Shown: positions 2,571 to 20,444 of the stretch, in pieces | Layout: every line of letters begins with the position of its first letter | Numbering within the stretch: position 1 is the first letter of the stretch | IMG/VR virus record: IMGVR_UViG_2778261297_000001 | DNA length: 29,570 bases | Source: a virus | Taxonomy: Duplodnaviria > Heunggongvirae > Uroviricota > Caudoviricetes | Reading direction: 5' to 3' (one strand) | Program-made: the position numbers and the translations under genes | Notes under the pieces: model-generated | What the model saw: the letters and a program-made list of their open reading frames with translations, nothing else | What the model was told of the DNA's origin: nothing | Databases searched by the model: none

Positions 2571-2804
2571 ATGAAATCAAAAGACACCCTAAAGTGGTTC
2601 CCTGCGCAGCTTCCTGAAGTAAGAATTATCCTAGGGGATGCTGTAGTGGAAGTAGCAAAACAGGGAAGACCTATCAATACCAGAACATTGCTTGATTACA
2701 TTGAAGGAAACATAAAGAAAAAATCATGGCTGGATAACAAAGAATTATTACAAACAGCGATATCAGTTCTTAAAGACAACCAAAATTTAAATGGTAAAAT
2801 GTAA
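2571..2804 (+). CDS. ydfK: Cold-shock-induced small protein YdfK (77 aa)
   Basis: Translation MKSKDTLKWFPAQLPEVRIILGDAVVEVAKQGRPINT... recalled as YdfK/YnaE family; AAGGA RBS 9 nt upstream of the internal ATG at 2571. Confidence 0.8.
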   Translation: MKSKDTLKWFPAQLPEVRIILGDAVVEVAKQGRPINTRTLLDYIEGNIKKKSWLDNKELLQTAISVLKDNQNLNGKM

Positions 2805-3097
2805 TATAATAAACTTACTTTTTTATCATTTTTCCACTTTAACAACATTTTGCTCCACTTTTCCACGACCAAACAACTTGAAATCTGGTTAAAATAACAC
2901 GCAACACTATTCTTCTTCCTTGAGTCCGCCCGGAACTCGAAAAACAAACCGAGTTAAAGCCATTTTTCACAAAATCGATTTTGGGTCTCACCAAAATTAC
3001 GGGGTTGCATACGCATTCGTTTATTTTCGAACGTGTACATACAAATATGCACAAAAATAATCAAAATTATTTTCTGAGATGCATTATGATATGAACA

Positions 3098-3117
3098 CCA
3101 ATTTCGTATAGAGTCTC
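3098..3117 (+). repeat. Direct near-repeat copy 2 (CCAATTTCGTATAGAGTCTC) immediately upstream of pinQ ATG
   Basis: 17 of 20 identical to 2191-2209; ends 3 nt before pinQ start codon. Confidence 0.4.
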
Positions 3118-3120
3118 ACT

Positions 3121-3711
3121 ATGTCTCGAATTTTTGCTTACTGTCGGATATCAACGCTGGATCAGACCACCGAAAATCAACGCCGGGAAATCGAAAGTGC
3201 AGGTTTTAAAATCAAACCTCAGCAAATAATCGAAGAACACATTAGCGGCTCAGCAGCAACCAGTGAGCGTCCTGGTTTTAACCGGTTGCTTGCTCGCCTG
3301 AAATGTGGTGATCAATTGATTGTGACAAAACTGGATCGCCTTGGTTGTAATGCAATGGATATCAGGAAAACAGTGGAACAACTGACCGAAACAGGTATCA
3401 GAGTGCATTGCTTAGCATTGGGGGGCATTGACCTGACCAGTCCAACAGGAAAAATGATGATGCAAGTAATTTCAGCAGTCGCTGAATTTGAACGAGACCT
3501 TTTACTTGAACGCACTCATTCCGGGATAGTAAGAGCCCGGGGCGCAGGGAAACGTTTTGGTCGACCACCTGTGTTAAATGAAGAACAGAAACAGGTGGTA
3601 TTCGAACGAATTAAGTCAGGTGTAAGTATAAGTGCCATTGCCCGGGAATTCAAAACCTCGCGGCAAACCATTTTAAGAGCCAAAGCAAAACTTCAGACAC
3701 CTGACATATAA
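3121..3711 (+). CDS. pinQ: Serine recombinase / DNA invertase PinQ (196 aa)
   Basis: Resolvase-invertase family features: N-terminal catalytic serine context [10 protein letters not shown]-terminal HTH; recalled as Qin/Rac Pin protein. Confidence 0.85.
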
Positions 3712-3808
3712 AAAATAATCTCGGTGTGAGATGCTTTACGTCTTCCAAGCCACCTTCCTTGCCGTAAATGGAAAGATACATCTAATTATAGAATTTATAT
3801 GTTTTACC

Positions 3809-6798
<2,990 letters not shown>

Positions 6799-9086: not shown

Positions 9087-9431
9087 GATGGTGTTAACTC
9101 CAGTCATCGCTGGCACTACCACTGCTGGTTCAGAGTTAAAAAAACTATGATTTTTTTCATGATGTTACCGTAGTATGTGAGTATCCATCGAATAGACACC
9201 AAGCAAAAAAGCTCCCGAAGGAGCCTTCATTTTCACTTTTTTAAATCCAACGACAGACGGCTGGCATTTAAGTATTGTGAAATATTATCAAATGTAATCA
9301 TCATTGATTTACAAAAGATACATTTTGCCCCGAAAGGATTCATGTCAGAAACATCAAAAGATGATGTTCTATACTGGGAACCATGACAACACGGGCATCT
9401 AAAGTGAATATGGTTTGTAATATTGTCTACC

Positions 9432-9644
9432 TCAAAGCGCCACTACATGAACAGCGGCAGGACCTTTAGGTCCGTTCTCAATACCAAATTCAACTTCCTG
9501 ATTCTCAGTTAATGTTTTGAAATCGTTGCTCTGAATTGCTGAGAAATGGACAAACACATCTTTGCTGCCATCTTTCGGCGTGATGAAACCAAAACCTTTT
9601 TCAGGGTTAAACCATTTCACTAAACCAGTCATTTTGTTAGACAT
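9432..9644 (-). CDS. cspI: Cold shock protein CspI (70 aa)
   Basis: CspA-family cold shock domain with RNP motifs KGFGFI and VFVHF; sequence recalled as CspI. Confidence 0.9.
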
Positions 9645-10005
9645 AATTATTACCTTTTGAAGAAATTAGCCCTTGGGCAGAATGGTCCGAAAAAAATATC
9701 AGAGAGAAAAACCAACAAGGAAATCTCAAGAGGTACAAATAATAAAATTATAACAATGACTGCTTCAGATAAATTTGTAACAAACCAGAACACCATTAAC
9801 GCATGATTAACCACCCATAGCAAGGATTACTTTTGTAAAGAAAAACACAGCAATGAAAGAATAGCTTTATTTATTAATAAAACGTGTCATTCTGATTAAG
9901 ACCTTTTATCTTACCCTTAAGATTTCAGGAATTTTGGCTCATGGAAGAGTCCTTTTTATTTAAATTTTACATTCCGCGATGTAAATGTTCCGATTTAATA
10001 TTACC

Positions 10006-12933: not shown

Positions 12934-13893
12934 TTAATTCACCATCAGTCTTAGAGCCAGTTCTTCCGGATAGGGATCGAAGTAATTCTGTGTAAGCAAG
13001 TAATCATTAGGATACTCACCCAGATAATGCTTCAGCAGAGTCAACGGCGCAAGAAGAGGCAATGTGCCAAAGCGATAGTTAAGTATAACCTCGCTCAACT
13101 CTTTACGCTGGCGTGTACTTAAGTAATTACTAAAATACCCCTGTATATGCATCAGCACATTCGTGTGATTTTTACGTGATGCTGGTTTTCTGAGAATCGC
13201 CATCAGATTATCACGATACACCTCAAAGTATGATTCAAGGTCCGCCCACTCGTGTATTGCAGCCACAAATGGTCCCATATCTTTATAGCCTGCCTGGCTA
13301 TGCGCCAACAACTGAAGCTTATAACGACTATGAAAAGCTAATAACTCTCTTCTTGATAATTTCTCCTTGTAAAGGTGATTGAGCTCATGCAAAGCAAAAA
13401 CTCTTTCAATAAAATTCTCACGAAGCACTGGATCATGTAATCGCCCATCCTCTTCAACCGGTAGCCAGGAAAACTTTTCCATCAAAGTGCTCGTAAATAG
13501 TCCCACTCCATCTTTACGACCTCGATTACCATTTTCATCATAGACACGCACGCGCTCCATGCCACAGCTGGGAGATTTAGCACAAACCACAAACCCCGAT
13601 ACATCCTTTAATTTGTCCATATAAGAACGACTAAACTCTGTCATTCTCTCTGTCACATCCTCATTCTGGTCGTGGCTGAAACACATCCGTATATTTCCTT
13701 GCTTCGAGCGCACAAGTCGTAGAGCAGGACGCGGAACTGGCAGCCCTATAGCCATTTCCGGACATACTGGTCTGAATGTTACCCATTCCACTAATTTGTC
13801 CATTAAAAAGTCATCTCTTTTGTGACCACCATCAAAACGAACAGCAGAACCGCCCAAACAACCGCTGATCCCAATCACAGGTTTTTTTATCAT
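12934..13893 (-). CDS. DUF523 (TudS-like thiouracil desulfidase fold) fused to DUF1722 (YbgA-like) protein, 319 aa
   Basis: N-terminal motifs GISGCLGG..VRFDGG, PVCPE and KSPSCG resemble DUF523/TudS Fe-S ligand motifs; C-terminal half resembles YbgA/DUF1722; domain assignment from memory. Confidence 0.7.
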   Translation of the reverse strand: MIKKPVIGISGCLGGSAVRFDGGHKRDDFLMDKLVEWVTFRPVCPEMAIGLPVPRPALRLVRSKQGNIRMCFSHDQNEDVTERMTEFSRSYMDKLKDVSGFVVCAKSPSCGMERVRVYDENGNRGRKDGVGLFTSTLMEKFSWLPVEEDGRLHDPVLRENFIERVFALHELNHLYKEKLSRRELLAFHSRYKLQLLAHSQAGYKDMGPFVAAIHEWADLESYFEVYRDNLMAILRKPASRKNHTNVLMHIQGYFSNYLSTRQRKELSEVILNYRFGTLPLLAPLTLLKHYLGEYPNDYLLTQNYFDPYPEELALRLMVN

Positions 13894-14085: not shown

Positions 14086-14610
14086 ATGAAGTTATGGCCT
14101 GTGTTGACTGGCATTGCACTCTCTTTCACTCTTATAGCATGTAAGGCCCCGACACCACCTAAAGGTGTGCAGCCGATTACAAATTTTGACGCCAACCGCT
14201 ACCTCGGAAAATGGTATGAAATAGCTCGCCTCGAGAACTGGTTCGAACGTGGTCTGGAACAGGTCAGCGCTACTTATGAAAAACGGAACGACGGAGGGAT
14301 TCGCGTACTTAACCGTGGATACGATCCAACGAAAAACAAATGGAGCGAGAGCGAAGGTAAAGCATACTTTACTGGAGATACTAAAACTGCAGCGTTGAAA
14401 GTTTCGTTTTTTGGCCCCTTCTATGGTGGCTATAATGTAATCAAACTGGATGATGAGTATAAGTATGCTCTTGTCAGTGGTCCGAACAGAGAATACCTAT
14501 GGATTCTGGCAAGGACCCAAACTATTCCAGATAATGTAAAAGCAGACTATGTGCGTACCGCTCAAAAGTTGGGATTCAATGTCAATGAACTATTATGGGT
14601 TAAACAATAA
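14086..14610 (+). CDS. Bacterial lipocalin (Blc-like) outer-membrane lipoprotein, 174 aa
   Basis: Signal peptide with lipobox LIAC; lipocalin motifs GKWYEIAR and FFGPFYGGYNVI; about 60 percent identical by eye to E. coli Blc. Confidence 0.85.
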   Translation: MKLWPVLTGIALSFTLIACKAPTPPKGVQPITNFDANRYLGKWYEIARLENWFERGLEQVSATYEKRNDGGIRVLNRGYDPTKNKWSESEGKAYFTGDTKTAALKVSFFGPFYGGYNVIKLDDEYKYALVSGPNREYLWILARTQTIPDNVKADYVRTAQKLGFNVNELLWVKQ

Positions 14611-14765: not shown

Positions 14766-15158
14766 TTATTTCGAACAATCAGCATCCATCTCCAATCGGA
14801 GATCCAACACCATCAGCATGCCCTCCACTACGCCCTCAGCTTTCTGGAGCATCCTGCCAACCCAACAATCAGATCGCCCATGCTTACGTGCAAGCGCCAT
14901 AAAAGTCATGCCGCCGACATAATAGTCCACCAATAAATCATGTAAATCGCTGTTGTTTTTTTTCAGGCGAGCCATACATTCACAAATGATCATCGCGTCA
15001 TCGTCACAGCATTGCGGACGAGATCTTACTTTTGAAGGAATTAATCCCTTAAAACCGGCGGCAATGGACGACCAGGTCACATCTTCATGATTATTAGCCG
15101 CCCATGCCCCCCAACGCTCAAGAACCATCTGAATATCACGCATCAACTTACTCCACAA
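14766..15158 (-). CDS. Late antiterminator Q, small 21/82/933W-type family (about 125-130 aa)
   Basis: Cys-rich Zn-binding region ([17 protein letters not shown]) and overall similarity to small Q proteins of lambdoid Stx-type phages; located immediately upstream of terminator and late genes. Confidence 0.7.
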
Positions 15159-15160
15159 AA

Positions 15161-16210
15161 TTAGGCCAGCACACCAATTGCCAGCGCGCGATCGATAAAT
15201 CGAAAAATCAGCTCCAGTTGGGAGCCATACTTCTCTTCAAATGCCACGGTATCCGTATGCAACTCGTCGTGATGCTTTCTGCACAAAGGCAACACAAAGA
15301 GATCATGTGCTTTGGTTCCCATTCCGCCCTGCCCGTGACCAATCAGATGATGCGGATCGTCGGCTGGCATACCGCAGCAAGCACACGGCTGTGTCTTAAC
15401 CCAGCGTGTGTATTTCTCCTTAACCCAACGGTGACGTTTAGGCAGCTTCATGAAAGATTCCGGAGACTCTGGATCAACGGTGATGCTTACCACCGTCTTT
15501 TCTTGTGATGGGTTTTGTTGCTGGTGGGCGTGAGGCAACGGTGCAAGATTTTTTGTGCGCTGTTTCAGTATGCTGGTGGCGGTCTGCTCTCCCGGTACGA
15601 TGTCGCTTTCACGGTACATTGAGCGGATTTTTTCCGCACGCAACCCCAGCGAACGACGTAATACCGCTTCCGGTAGCGCGTCCGCCACCTGATTGCGGAC
15701 CGCCCACCAGGATAATTCAGCCAGAGATAATTCACGCTCCTGCGTACCGCTTATTGCGTGACCGATGACGTCAATCATCCATGCTGACAGGTTTTGATGA
15801 GCTAGTTGCTCGAGTGATTCGGATGTCTGGTCACGCAGCTGGTTGTCGCAGTGCCAGCACAACACCATTGCGCCGGTACCATAACGGTGAATGACGGTTT
15901 CGCTGTGATGATAATCGCCGTGTGGCCACTGGCAGGATTTAATATGGCGCAACAGCCAGTCAGACAATGCACCAGCACCACCAGCAGCACGAATCACCCG
16001 TGCGTTACTGAAAAACGGCAGCAATGTTTTGTCTTCCACCAGCGGCTGGCGAGCGGCAGGAACGACCCCGGACGGCAGATTACGCATGCTTTTCGGTTCC
16101 GGCTCCACCAGTAACCGGGTATTGTGGAATACCGGCATGGGTTCACGGCCCGGCTTAACGATCACCAGCCCGAGTTCCGGTACCAGAACAGGTCGAAGTA
16201 ATACCCGCAC
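15161..16210 (-). CDS. DUF968 protein (YdfU-like, 349 aa) with C-terminal HNH/Zn-ribbon-like motif
   Basis: C-terminal [43 protein letters not shown] cysteine/histidine cluster; nin-region position upstream of Q. Confidence 0.7.
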
Positions 16211-16211
16211 G

Positions 16212-16490
16212 TTACCTCCAGATGCGTTGCTGGAATGTGCGGGACGGACGCGGTGGGCGTTCGGAGTAAGGAAGCCTGACGGAGATTATCCAGTGACGGT
16301 AGTCGAGGCTAAGGGCTTTTTTAACCTCGCATCCGCGCCTGCGGTAACACTGAATGAGCCATTCGGCCTGTTCTTCAGTGCATGGGGGATGCTGGTACCA
16401 GTCTGACTTAAATGCGTGAGAATACCGCTCGTGCGTGTGGGCAAGAACGGTCGAATTATCATGATTGTAATATTTTGCGTTGCGTGCCAT
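16212..16490 (-). CDS. DUF1364 (YbcO-like) putative nuclease, 92 aa
   Basis: Small Cys/His-rich ORF (..HPPCTEEQAEWLIQCYRRRGCE..) resembling YbcO family; tightly packed between rem-like and DUF968 genes. Confidence 0.6.
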   Translation of the reverse strand: MARNAKYYNHDNSTVLAHTHERYSHAFKSDWYQHPPCTEEQAEWLIQCYRRRGCEVKKALSLDYRHWIISVRLPYSERPPRPSRTFQQRIWR

Positions 16491-16556
16491 CGGTTTTCTC
16501 CGGTGGCACGGTGTTACTCAGCGGGAGTTCAGCCCCGCGCAAGATTGTAGATGAGT

Positions 16557-16808
16557 TTATTCTTCTGAAAAAGCAGAAAAGCCAGCTTTTATTCCGATCT
16601 CTTTCAATGCCTGTAATGAAGTGACAAACTCACCGTCGCGCAAGATAAATCCGTCCGTCACTCGGGCATCCACATAATTAATTAACGCAGCCCCATTTTT
16701 TTGCAAACACACAATGCGGTAATGACTAGCAATATTTCCATTTTCAACGCACACAGCATAGAGGCCATCTTCACAAAAAATTTTACGCAGTTCTTCGATG
16801 TTCATCAT
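16557..16808 (-). CDS. rem: Rem-like small protein (83 aa), function unknown
   Basis: 83-aa ORF MMNIEELRKIFCEDGLYAVCVENGNIASHYRIV..; position downstream of hokD as in Qin. Confidence 0.55.
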   Translation of the reverse strand: MMNIEELRKIFCEDGLYAVCVENGNIASHYRIVCLQKNGAALINYVDARVTDGFILRDGEFVTSLQALKEIGIKAGFSAFSEE

Positions 16809-16924
16809 CAGAATCCTTCCGGATAATTAGCTCTCCCCTTTAAGGGACCATCCCTCTTATCCCTGCGCGCTACTTAAGTATTTTTGATTCTATTCCGGCA
16901 CCATCCAGAACTTCAAATGCGTTG

Positions 16925-16954
16925 AAAATAAAAACAAAAACCCGCCGAAGCGGG
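16925..16954 (-). terminator. Rho-independent terminator downstream of hokD (end of relB-relE-hokD operon)
   Basis: Minus-strand hairpin CCCGCTTCGGCGGG followed by TTTTTGTTTT. Confidence 0.6.
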
Positions 16955-17024
16955 TTAAGTGCGGGTGCGTTGAGGATGCCTGCCACATCAGAGGTGGCGA
17001 GGGATTTCTCACTCGCCGAGTCTC

Positions 17025-20386: not shown

Positions 20387-20444
20387 TTTTCTGGTGACGT
20401 TTGGCGGTATCAGTTTTACTCCGTGACTGCTCTGCCGCCCTTTT
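20387..20444 (+). ncRNA. dicF: DicF small regulatory RNA (about 53 nt plus terminator U-tail)
   Basis: Sequence TTTCTGGTGACGTTTGGCGGTATCAGTTTTACTCCGTGACTGCTCTGCCGCCCTTTTT matches DicF from memory, including the UUUCUGGUGACG seed and intrinsic terminator. Confidence 0.75.

Follow-up and report, generated by a model that had tools for sequence, protein, structure and literature searches.

The question raised by this locus is what is encoded by the two genes standing directly before the antiterminator gene Q in a prophage of Escherichia coli, and whether both products are nucleases, as a first-pass annotation had proposed from Cys/His clusters seen in the two sequences. The stretch of DNA analysed here, referred to as the window, has 29,570 nucleotides and comes from the E. 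coli chromosome, where it belongs to the cryptic prophage Qin. According to the list of open reading frames (ORFs), positions 15161-16490 are filled exactly by two adjacent minus-strand ORFs, ydfU and a 92-codon ORF referred to as orf92, with the following neighbors:

16557..16808, minus strand: rem, the upstream gene, transcribed in the same direction (RefSeq 'protein Rem'; phrog_340)
16212..16490, minus strand: orf92, 92 aa, ATG start; conserved small protein of PHROG 1212, not DUF1364
15161..16210, minus strand: ydfU, 349 aa, GTG start, stop codon included; DUF968 protein
14766..15143, minus strand: antiterminator Q (PF06530, E 8e-51; RefSeq 'antiterminator Q family protein'; 125 aa by the RefSeq start)

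Position of the two genes in the Qin prophage

The early-right (nin-type) operon of Qin has orf92 and ydfU as its last genes ahead of Q, and 17 nt separate the ydfU stop from the start of Q. In the annotated genome of strain S1, the genes relB, relE, hokD, rem, a 'hypothetical protein', ydfU, and an 'antiterminator Q family protein' follow each other on the same strand, and Q is followed by cargo genes and a lysis cassette. The gene order of K-12 MG1655 is that of the Qin region of S1, and the RefSeq label ydfU ('DUF968 domain-containing protein') is used in genomes that are 100% identical over the region.

This locus is very common. Many complete E. coli genomes carry the 2.2 kb around it with 100% identity. 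Used as a query, the same 2.2 kb (Q, ydfU, orf92, and rem) find matches in 5214 of the 5426 complete genomes of this species, mostly with several copies per genome. The exact YdfU protein is found on about 960 contigs, and relatives of its gene are present in most E. coli genomes and in many enterobacterial prophages, including Stx phages. Across 80 Enterobacterales species loci, Q lies directly downstream of the YdfU gene in 55, and rusA is located within 4 kb of it in most of the loci examined.

The orthologue in K-12 is YdfU (b1560), which is 90% identical over all 349 aa and shares the neighbors rem, hokD, and relBE upstream and Q downstream. The two loci differ in the downstream Q, a 125-aa PF06530 protein here and the 250-aa YdfT/QuuQ in K-12, and in the cargo after Q, which consists of lipocalin and YbgA-like genes here and of cspB/cspF in K-12. 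One of the strongest Rho-dependent terminators of K-12 has been located upstream of ydfU and grouped by its authors with those that suppress toxic prophage genes. In the cryptic prophage, ydfU is silenced.

The gene ydfU, its family, and its classification as a nuclease are already known. DUF968 and DUF1364 together make up group 7 of the His-Me finger classification of Jablonska et al. 2017, where YdfU and YbcO are named, RusA and Q are noted as neighbors, and a recombination or repair role like that of NinG and Ref is proposed (PMC5714182). Curtis et al. 2014 described Gram-positive DUF968 proteins as fusions in which an Orf-like domain is followed up by an HNH domain (PMC4118853). For YdfU and its close homologues, no biochemical or genetic data were found in the literature, and a 2024 survey of the 'y-ome' of K-12 still lists YdfU as uncharacterised. 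The first-pass annotation called the functions of both proteins uncharacterised, which holds for YdfU itself but not for the families, classed in 2017 (PMC5714182), nor for Gp16, a protein that passes the DUF968 threshold and was characterised in 2026 (PMC12817073). What is added here is the corrected identity of orf92 and its absence from the K-12 annotation, the placement of its family before three different nin-region nucleases with a probable translational coupling, the connection drawn explicitly between the catalytic domain of YdfU and both Ref and the newly characterised Gp16, and the description of a family-specific N-terminal domain and of mosaicism at the level of domains.

Family, start codon, and selection of YdfU

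YdfU matches the Pfam family DUF968 (PF06147) with an E-value of 4.5e-77; the score is 258.3 bits (cut-off 27.8), and residues 160-346 cover profile positions 1-171. It also matches phrog_96, labeled 'HNH endonuclease', over its full length (E 6.4e-173). Two further families lie below their thresholds: HNHc_6 (PF16784; 24.4 bits, cut-off 26.6) and RecA_dep_nuc, the family of P1 Ref (PF16786; 15.2 bits, cut-off 26.9, E 0.024), so that YdfU is a member of neither. A search of NCBIfam returned no match.

Shorter versions of YdfU are annotated in several phage records. The GTG codon right after the upstream stop is kept in all eight loci compared, and the N-termini of 33 full-length relatives coincide with this GTG start when aligned with the YdfU of the window. 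These relatives belong to a large family: a HMMER search with full-length YdfU against 1.84 billion cluster representatives gave 2783 matches at E<=0.001 and 97 at E<=1e-30, many of the best matches being fragments or matches to a single domain. The two-domain architecture typical of YdfU, with 326-388 aa, is found in 75 of the 80 loci.

The dN/dS ratio of ydfU is 0.14-0.25 overall, which indicates purifying selection, and 0.04-0.08 in the C-terminal domain. Compared with the PPompW phages, the N-terminal domain is close (dN 0.03) and the C-terminal domain distant (dN 0.35), while the reverse is seen against SfIV (dN 0.55 and 0.04, respectively). Recombination in the linker therefore shuffles the two domains of YdfU as modules. 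Long 'fusion' proteins with a YdfU N-terminus (P0148, P0191, P0192, P0249, and P0126) were considered as further architectures and discarded; they are joined to tail-tip, tail-fibre, or portal fragments and are deletion chimeras of decayed prophages, uninformative for the architecture of the family.

Domain anatomy of YdfU

The AlphaFold (AF2) model of YdfU has a pLDDT of 87.7 and predicts two confident domains joined by a disordered linker at residues 228-241. Its parts, all on the minus strand, are:

15536..16210, minus strand: N-terminal domain, residues 1-225; family-specific, AF2 pLDDT mostly 80-96
15842..15934, minus strand: putative structural zinc site of the N-terminal domain, residues 93-123 (C93, H101, C118, C121), a beta-beta-alpha element
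15479..15535, minus strand: interdomain linker and apparent recombination joint, residues 226-244; pLDDT <50 at 228-241
15164..15478, minus strand: C-terminal His-Me finger (HNH) nuclease domain, residues 245-349
15257..15385, minus strand: catalytic and zinc core, residues 276-318 (C276-x2-C279, H287-H288, K300, D303, C310-R-K-H313-H314, H318)

The N-terminal domain has no Pfam match and no structural match covering it in PDB or BFVD, and comparisons with lambda NinB/Orf and with the N-terminal domain of Gp16 revealed no similarity. It holds a Cys/His cluster with the family motif CQ..YC/H..LCWHH/CDN. C93 and C118 never vary in this motif, conservation of W119 and D122 is 90% or higher, and either Cys or His occupies positions 101 and 121. 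In the AF2 model the cluster is formed by strands 105-110 and 113-118 and helix 119-125, and it is probably a structural zinc site. The idea that this CxC/H motif is a degenerate second HNH finger derived from an internal duplication was rejected, as hhalign finds no significant similarity to the C-terminal finger (probability 1.3%). The linker is rich in indels in the alignment, has a dN/dS of about 1 in several pairs, and separates domains of discordant divergence.

The second cluster of YdfU (C276/C279/H287/H288/C310/H313/H314/H318) lies in the C-terminal domain, for which the AF2 model predicts a beta-beta-alpha element (285-288, 306-309, and 311-319). The predicted beta-hairpin followed by an alpha-helix, together with its likeness to solved members, places this domain in the His-Me finger fold. 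The catalytic residues of the fold are present as well, H288 being aligned with the 'LHH' of Ref, the 'LAH' of YbcO, and H157 of Gp16, and H314 and H318 with H185 and H189 of Gp16. Among 70 representative C-terminal domains of the family, each of H287, H288, K300, D303, H314, and H318 is kept in 63-69, and 48 retain the zinc ligands C276, C279, C310, and H/C313. The pattern of the YdfU of the window, CCHHDCHHH, is the commonest in this set.

Relatives of the YdfU nuclease domain

The relative ranked highest by profile-profile comparison is Gp16 from the Staphylococcus phage phiNM1, to which the C-terminal domain of YdfU aligns with an hhalign probability of 95% (E 3.4e-8; 36% identity over 64 columns). 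The finger of Gp16 has a CxxC-9-H ... CRxHHxxxH spacing identical to that of YdfU, and the counterparts of the YdfU core are C145xxC148, H157, C181, H184, H185, and H189. Gp16 matches HNHc_6 with an E-value of 4.9e-117 and lies also above the DUF968 threshold (29.1 bits). To locate its gene in the record of the phiNM1 genome, protein accessions were counted off starting at the presumed first gene; the length and motif positions of the protein agree with those given by Xu et al. Like ydfU, it is an early phage gene; genes for recombination and replication lie close by, and the region also contains rusA. The two proteins differ in their N-termini: Gp16 has 223 aa with a NinB/Orf-like N-terminal domain, whereas the 349-aa YdfU has an unrelated one. 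Gp16 has been characterised by Xu et al. (NAR 2026; PMC12817073) as an early protein that acts as a nickase in vitro, its cleavage being enhanced by RecA, to which it binds. Efficient propagation of the phage requires Gp16, which also inhibits the replication and growth of the host. Mutants in its zinc site abolish toxicity, mutants in the catalytic histidines relieve it only partly, and C181 is required for cleavage (PMC12817073).

The next relative is Ref from bacteriophage P1 (PDB 3PLW; PF16786), a RecA-dependent HNH endonuclease and, like Gp16, a nickase, whose finger domain is homologous to that of YdfU, also by fold (P7/P1 Ref, profile-profile probability 78%, E 1.9e-5). DNA binding by Ref requires its N-terminal tail, which is disordered and basic, and the finger of Ref has a helical insertion; YdfU instead has a folded N-terminal domain of 225 aa. 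The likeness to YbcO (DUF1364; DLP12 prophage, PDB 3G27) is weaker than that to Gp16 and Ref, with a profile-profile probability of 40% (E 3e-4); YbcO is a stand-alone finger of 96 aa, and YdfU adds 240 N-terminal residues. Lambda NinG/Rap (PF05766), a branch-specific endonuclease, shares with YdfU the His-Me finger and the place in the nin region just before Q, but not the domain organisation, and its match to the C-terminal domain is marginal and at the level of the motif (hhalign probability 6%).

A different case is that of PdcB (Upf95.7) from P1 and P7, a full-length homologue with 26% identity over 91% of YdfU and a DUF968 E-value of 5e-50. In this protein the catalytic HH, H314, and H318 are replaced and the four Cys are kept. 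The pdcB gene of P7 is located directly upstream of the late activator gene lpa, and that of P1 is non-essential and dispensable for plaque formation. Since PdcB lacks the catalytic histidines and keeps the rest, part of the DUF968 family works without catalysis.

These results bear out what the first-pass annotation said of the larger ORF, namely that it is a DUF968 protein, HNH-like, and placed in a nin-type slot upstream of Q: the family match is strong, the catalytic motif is intact, the relatives are recombination nucleases, and Q follows at the short distance given above.

The 92-codon gene upstream of ydfU

The smaller ORF had been labeled DUF1364, the family of YbcO. However, orf92 has no Pfam match even at E<=10, whereas gp052 (YbcO) of phage mEp237, used as a positive control, matches DUF1364 with an E-value of 2.6e-42. 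Residues 27-92 of orf92 are instead a full-length match to phrog_1212 (profile positions 1-66 of 66; E 5.1e-36), and no relative was found in PDB. Of the two domain labels, profile searches, the check named by the first-pass annotation, confirmed DUF968 and refuted DUF1364, and structure prediction gave a parallel answer, with a beta-beta-alpha finger in the C-terminal domain of YdfU and a beta-alpha-beta-beta core in orf92.

Over codons 27-92, dN/dS is 0.05-0.15 at a dS of 0.5-0.9, which marks the 92-aa ORF, NEVERTHELESS, as a real gene. Homologues of 90-92 aa form about 148 clusters in Escherichia and Shigella, and the ORF of K-12 MG1655 is located at NC_000913.3 1644306-1644584. A shorter type of 66 aa, equivalent to residues 27-92, is carried by N15 and by temperate phages of Klebsiella, Hafnia, Edwardsiella, Erwinia, Cronobacter, Yersinia (PY54), and Salmonella (Gifsy-1 and Gifsy-2). 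Lambda NinF and the 66-aa Fdc/PdcA of P7, encoded upstream of PdcB, were considered as further homologues, and neither shows homology.

The view that the two ORFs both encode nucleases with Cys/His clusters, and that the small protein belongs to DUF1364/YbcO, draws on the string 'NSTVLAH' in the orf92 of the window, which resembles the 'ETSVLAH' of YbcO, and on the true YbcO genes that fill the neighboring slot in related phages. Yet the DUF1364-like 'TVLAH' is peculiar to the copy in the window and is missing in other members. H34 and C37 are the sole invariant Cys/His among the Escherichia copies, and C37 is a Met in the homologues of PY54 and N15, so that orf92 has no conserved Cys/His cluster or metal ligands of the treble-clef/His-Me kind; of the clusters claimed for both ORFs, only the two of YdfU stand. 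The AF2 model of orf92 predicts, besides its core, a C-terminal helix and 25 disordered N-terminal residues, and a beta-alpha-beta-beta arrangement is not the beta-beta-alpha of the finger. In mEp237, moreover, the orf92 homologue (gene 051) and YbcO (gene 052) are two distinct adjacent genes. A second nuclease in orf92 is thus barely credible; orf92 is a separate small protein, alpha/beta in its predicted fold, that bears no mark of a nuclease.

The junction of the two genes has the following layout:

16208..16222, minus strand: putative coupling junction ...TGG AGG TAA C GTG; the GGAGG Shine-Dalgarno of ydfU is made up by the final codons of orf92

One base lies between the orf92 stop and the GTG of ydfU, an arrangement suggesting that translation of the two genes is coupled. 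Before YbcO in mEp237, NinG in Gifsy-2, and gp41 in N15, the genes are joined in the same way (W-[R/G/E]-stop, 1-2 nt, start). In the 80 IMG/VR loci of the 92-aa type the gene order is hokD, (rem), orf92, ydfU, rusA, and Q; in the 80 loci of the 66-aa type, DUF1367 and the 66-aa gene are followed by NinG (about 68) or YbcO (about 7) and then by Q. In lambdoid phages, the PHROG 1212 gene therefore stands directly before one of three His-Me finger nucleases, and the NinG of Gifsy-type phages is preceded by it just as ydfU is here. An obligate partnership of orf92 with YdfU was rejected, because no more than about 9 of the 80 species loci have it upstream of YdfU; in the others, a KilA-N gene or other genes take this place. 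In N15 and PY54, the homologue adjoins RNase_T/Lar and RdgC genes.

Proposed function of YdfU and alternatives

YdfU is proposed to be an active nuclease associated with recombination or replication, a reading given a probability of about 60%, in which activity and substrate are extrapolated from its relatives. In this mechanism C276, C279, C310, and H313 would hold a zinc ion (Cys3His) that stabilises the finger, H288 at the end of strand 1 would serve as the general base, and D303, H314, and H318 would build the metal site. The N-terminal domain would most likely supply target recognition, directed to a DNA structure or a partner protein. The protein would then most likely nick recombination or replication intermediates such as D-loops and branched or supercoiled DNA, possibly together with RecA, and would act early in lytic growth to favor phage recombination and replication. 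Such substrates are probable because of the homology to Gp16 and Ref and the company that the gene keeps, with rusA nearby and a slot shared with NinG and YbcO. The catalytic His and Asp residues are kept in about 90% of the 70 representatives, which together with the low dN/dS of the C-terminal domain and the stable position of the gene speaks for a nuclease, as do the DUF968 match, the matches to HNHc_6 and RecA_dep_nuc below their thresholds, the predicted finger, and the Rho-dependent terminator upstream of ydfU; the 2017 His-Me classification arrived at the same hypothesis. The loss of the catalytic histidines in PdcB and the failure of YdfU to reach the Ref and HNHc_6 cut-offs weigh against it. 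An involvement of RecA is put forward tentatively and seems rather doubtful; YdfU has neither the NinB-like N-terminal domain of Gp16 nor the basic tail of Ref, so the link stays one of analogy. YdfU is not simply the junction resolvase of these phages, as it usually co-occurs with RusA, and for the same reason it was discarded as an alternative to RusA in the slot, rusA accompanying it in most loci.

The main rival, considered unlikely, is that YdfU is mainly a non-catalytic factor that binds DNA or protein, for example a regulator of the switch from early to late genes, with the HNH finger as its binding module. Such a role is suggested by the P1-type members (PdcB/Upf95.7; P0209, P0229, and P0260), which keep the architecture and the four Cys without HH, H314, and H318, and by the place of the gene just upstream of a late activator in unrelated phages, Q in the lambdoid loci and Lpa in P7. 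The behavior of Gp16, where toxicity depends more on the zinc site than on the catalytic histidines, points the same way. The position before Q, however, may merely be that of the last gene of the early operon, and a binding module hardly explains why H287, H288, K300, D303, H314, and H318 are invariant or nearly so in the lambdoid proteins, in a domain with the dN/dS given above.

YdfU could also be a conflict nuclease, either an enzyme of prophage exclusion or defence or one of anti-defence and host takeover. This too is given little probability. It would fit the abundance of the locus and of the exact protein in E. coli, the intact state of ydfU under purifying selection although Qin is defective, the inhibition of host replication and growth by Gp16, and the Rho silencing upstream of ydfU that its authors tie to toxic prophage genes being suppressed. 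That the gene stays intact can, however, be explained by frequent recombination with active phages, and its silencing in the prophage state argues against a role in protecting the lysogen. The gene lies inside the early lytic operon and not in a moron or a defence island, and YdfU has no match among the PADLOC defence models, a library that comprises defence systems and not anti-defence proteins; the anti-defence nuclease suggested by the first-pass annotation found no support. Far less probable is a selfish free-standing HNH homing endonuclease, in spite of the HNH domain and the label 'HNH endonuclease' in some phage records. The syntenic position is fixed across Enterobacterales prophages, the two-domain architecture is kept in nearly all loci, ydfU is not inserted within or beside a target gene, and its closest relatives are nucleases of the recombination type, not homing enzymes.

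The active nuclease reading can be extended to both genes. In this more speculative form, judged improbable as a whole, the PHROG 1212 protein would be a dedicated coupled partner (a regulator, an inhibitor, or a specificity subunit) of YdfU, YbcO, and NinG/Rap, and YdfU would be a nickase directed to RecA or to DNA structures by its zinc-containing N-terminal domain, so that Gp16 and Ref would have a lambdoid counterpart whose targeting module is new.

Within the 'y-ome' of E. coli K-12, ydfU still counts among the uncharacterised genes. The link of its catalytic domain to Gp16 and Ref makes YdfU a candidate RecA-stimulated nickase. If this is correct, the phage nucleases known to make use of host recombination would gain a third lineage, one whose targeting domain is new. 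Like Ref, for which this has been shown, such an enzyme could influence genome instability driven by prophages or synergy with antibiotics. Two by-products of the analysis are the corrected domain label of orf92 and a conserved 92-codon gene missing from the K-12 MG1655 reference annotation, where orf92 is intact, 88% identical, and located in an unannotated gap of 346 bp between ydfU and rem.

Probable domain exchange in YdfU

The two domains of YdfU have different affinities. When ydfU (window 15164-16210) is compared with its counterparts at loci L012, L013 and L003, the N-domain is near those of the PPompW phages and the C-domain is far from them, while against SfIV it is the C-domain that is near and the N-domain that is far. 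Discordant divergence of this kind, read from sequence comparison, suggests that recombination has taken place in the disordered linker and that the two domains are shuffled as modules. Five database "proteins" (P0148, P0191, P0192, P0249 and P0126) join the YdfU N-terminus to fragments of tail-tip J, tail-fibre or portal proteins, and these fusions appear to be deletion chimeras of decayed Qin-like prophages.

A full-length homologue is encoded by pdcB (Upf95.7) of phage P7 (AF503408, 3405-4448). The PdcB proteins of P1 and P7 retain the four zinc cysteines but, unlike YdfU, have lost the catalytic HH, H314 and H318. The pdcB gene stands directly 5' of lpa, which encodes the late-promoter activator, just as ydfU stands before Q.

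Gene models and the 92-codon ORF

In the phage records, ydfU occupies 3453-4502 of locus L002 and 2781-3830 of loci L010 and L011. The GenBank records of HannyBb, PhiR42_1 and Tritos begin the gene at an internal ATG, 24-41 codons short; the better model is the conserved GTG start immediately 3' of the upstream stop. The PhiR42_1 record additionally annotates an ORF on the opposite strand in place of the 92-aa gene.

In K-12 MG1655, the counterpart of window 16212-16490 is intact and 88% identical to the window copy:

NC_000913.3 1644306-1644584 (4307-4585 of the extracted locus L009), minus strand, 92-codon ORF

It lies in the 346-bp gap between ydfU and rem, which is unannotated in the copy of NC_000913.3 consulted, despite strong purifying selection on the core of the ORF. 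A strong Rho-dependent terminator has been reported "upstream of ydfU" in K-12 (PMC9160355), and this terminator, located somewhere 5' of ydfU, may overlap the 92-codon ORF.

In Gifsy- and mEp237-type phages (L005 1899-2498, L006 1896-2498 and loci L094-L173), a DUF1367 gene is almost always found 5' of the 66-aa homologue, and the conserved order is DUF1367, small ORF, then NinG or YbcO.

Cargo and candidate regulatory signals of the Qin variant

The Qin variant in the window encodes a 125-aa PF06530 protein as Q, whereas K-12 has the 250-aa YdfT/QuuQ. Between Q and the lysis cassette, where K-12 carries cspB/cspF, it holds two other genes:

12934-13893, minus strand, YbgA-family gene
14086-14610, plus strand, lipocalin (Blc-like) gene

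The signals between hokD and the 92-aa ORF include two promoter candidates identified as consensus matches only:

16939-16956, minus strand, strong hairpin resembling a terminator, between hokD and rem, with a T-run after AACCCGCTTCGGCGGGTT
16887-16916, sigma-70-like promoter match upstream of rem
16544-16571, sigma-70-like promoter match upstream of the 92-aa ORF

Elsewhere in the window, three RNAs passed the Rfam gathering threshold, all of them expected in a Qin prophage; the thermoregulator is presumably the 5' UTR of cspI:

3843-4041, minus strand, IS009 RNA
9405-9789, minus strand, cspA-type thermoregulator 5' UTR
20389-20440, plus strand, DicF antisense RNA
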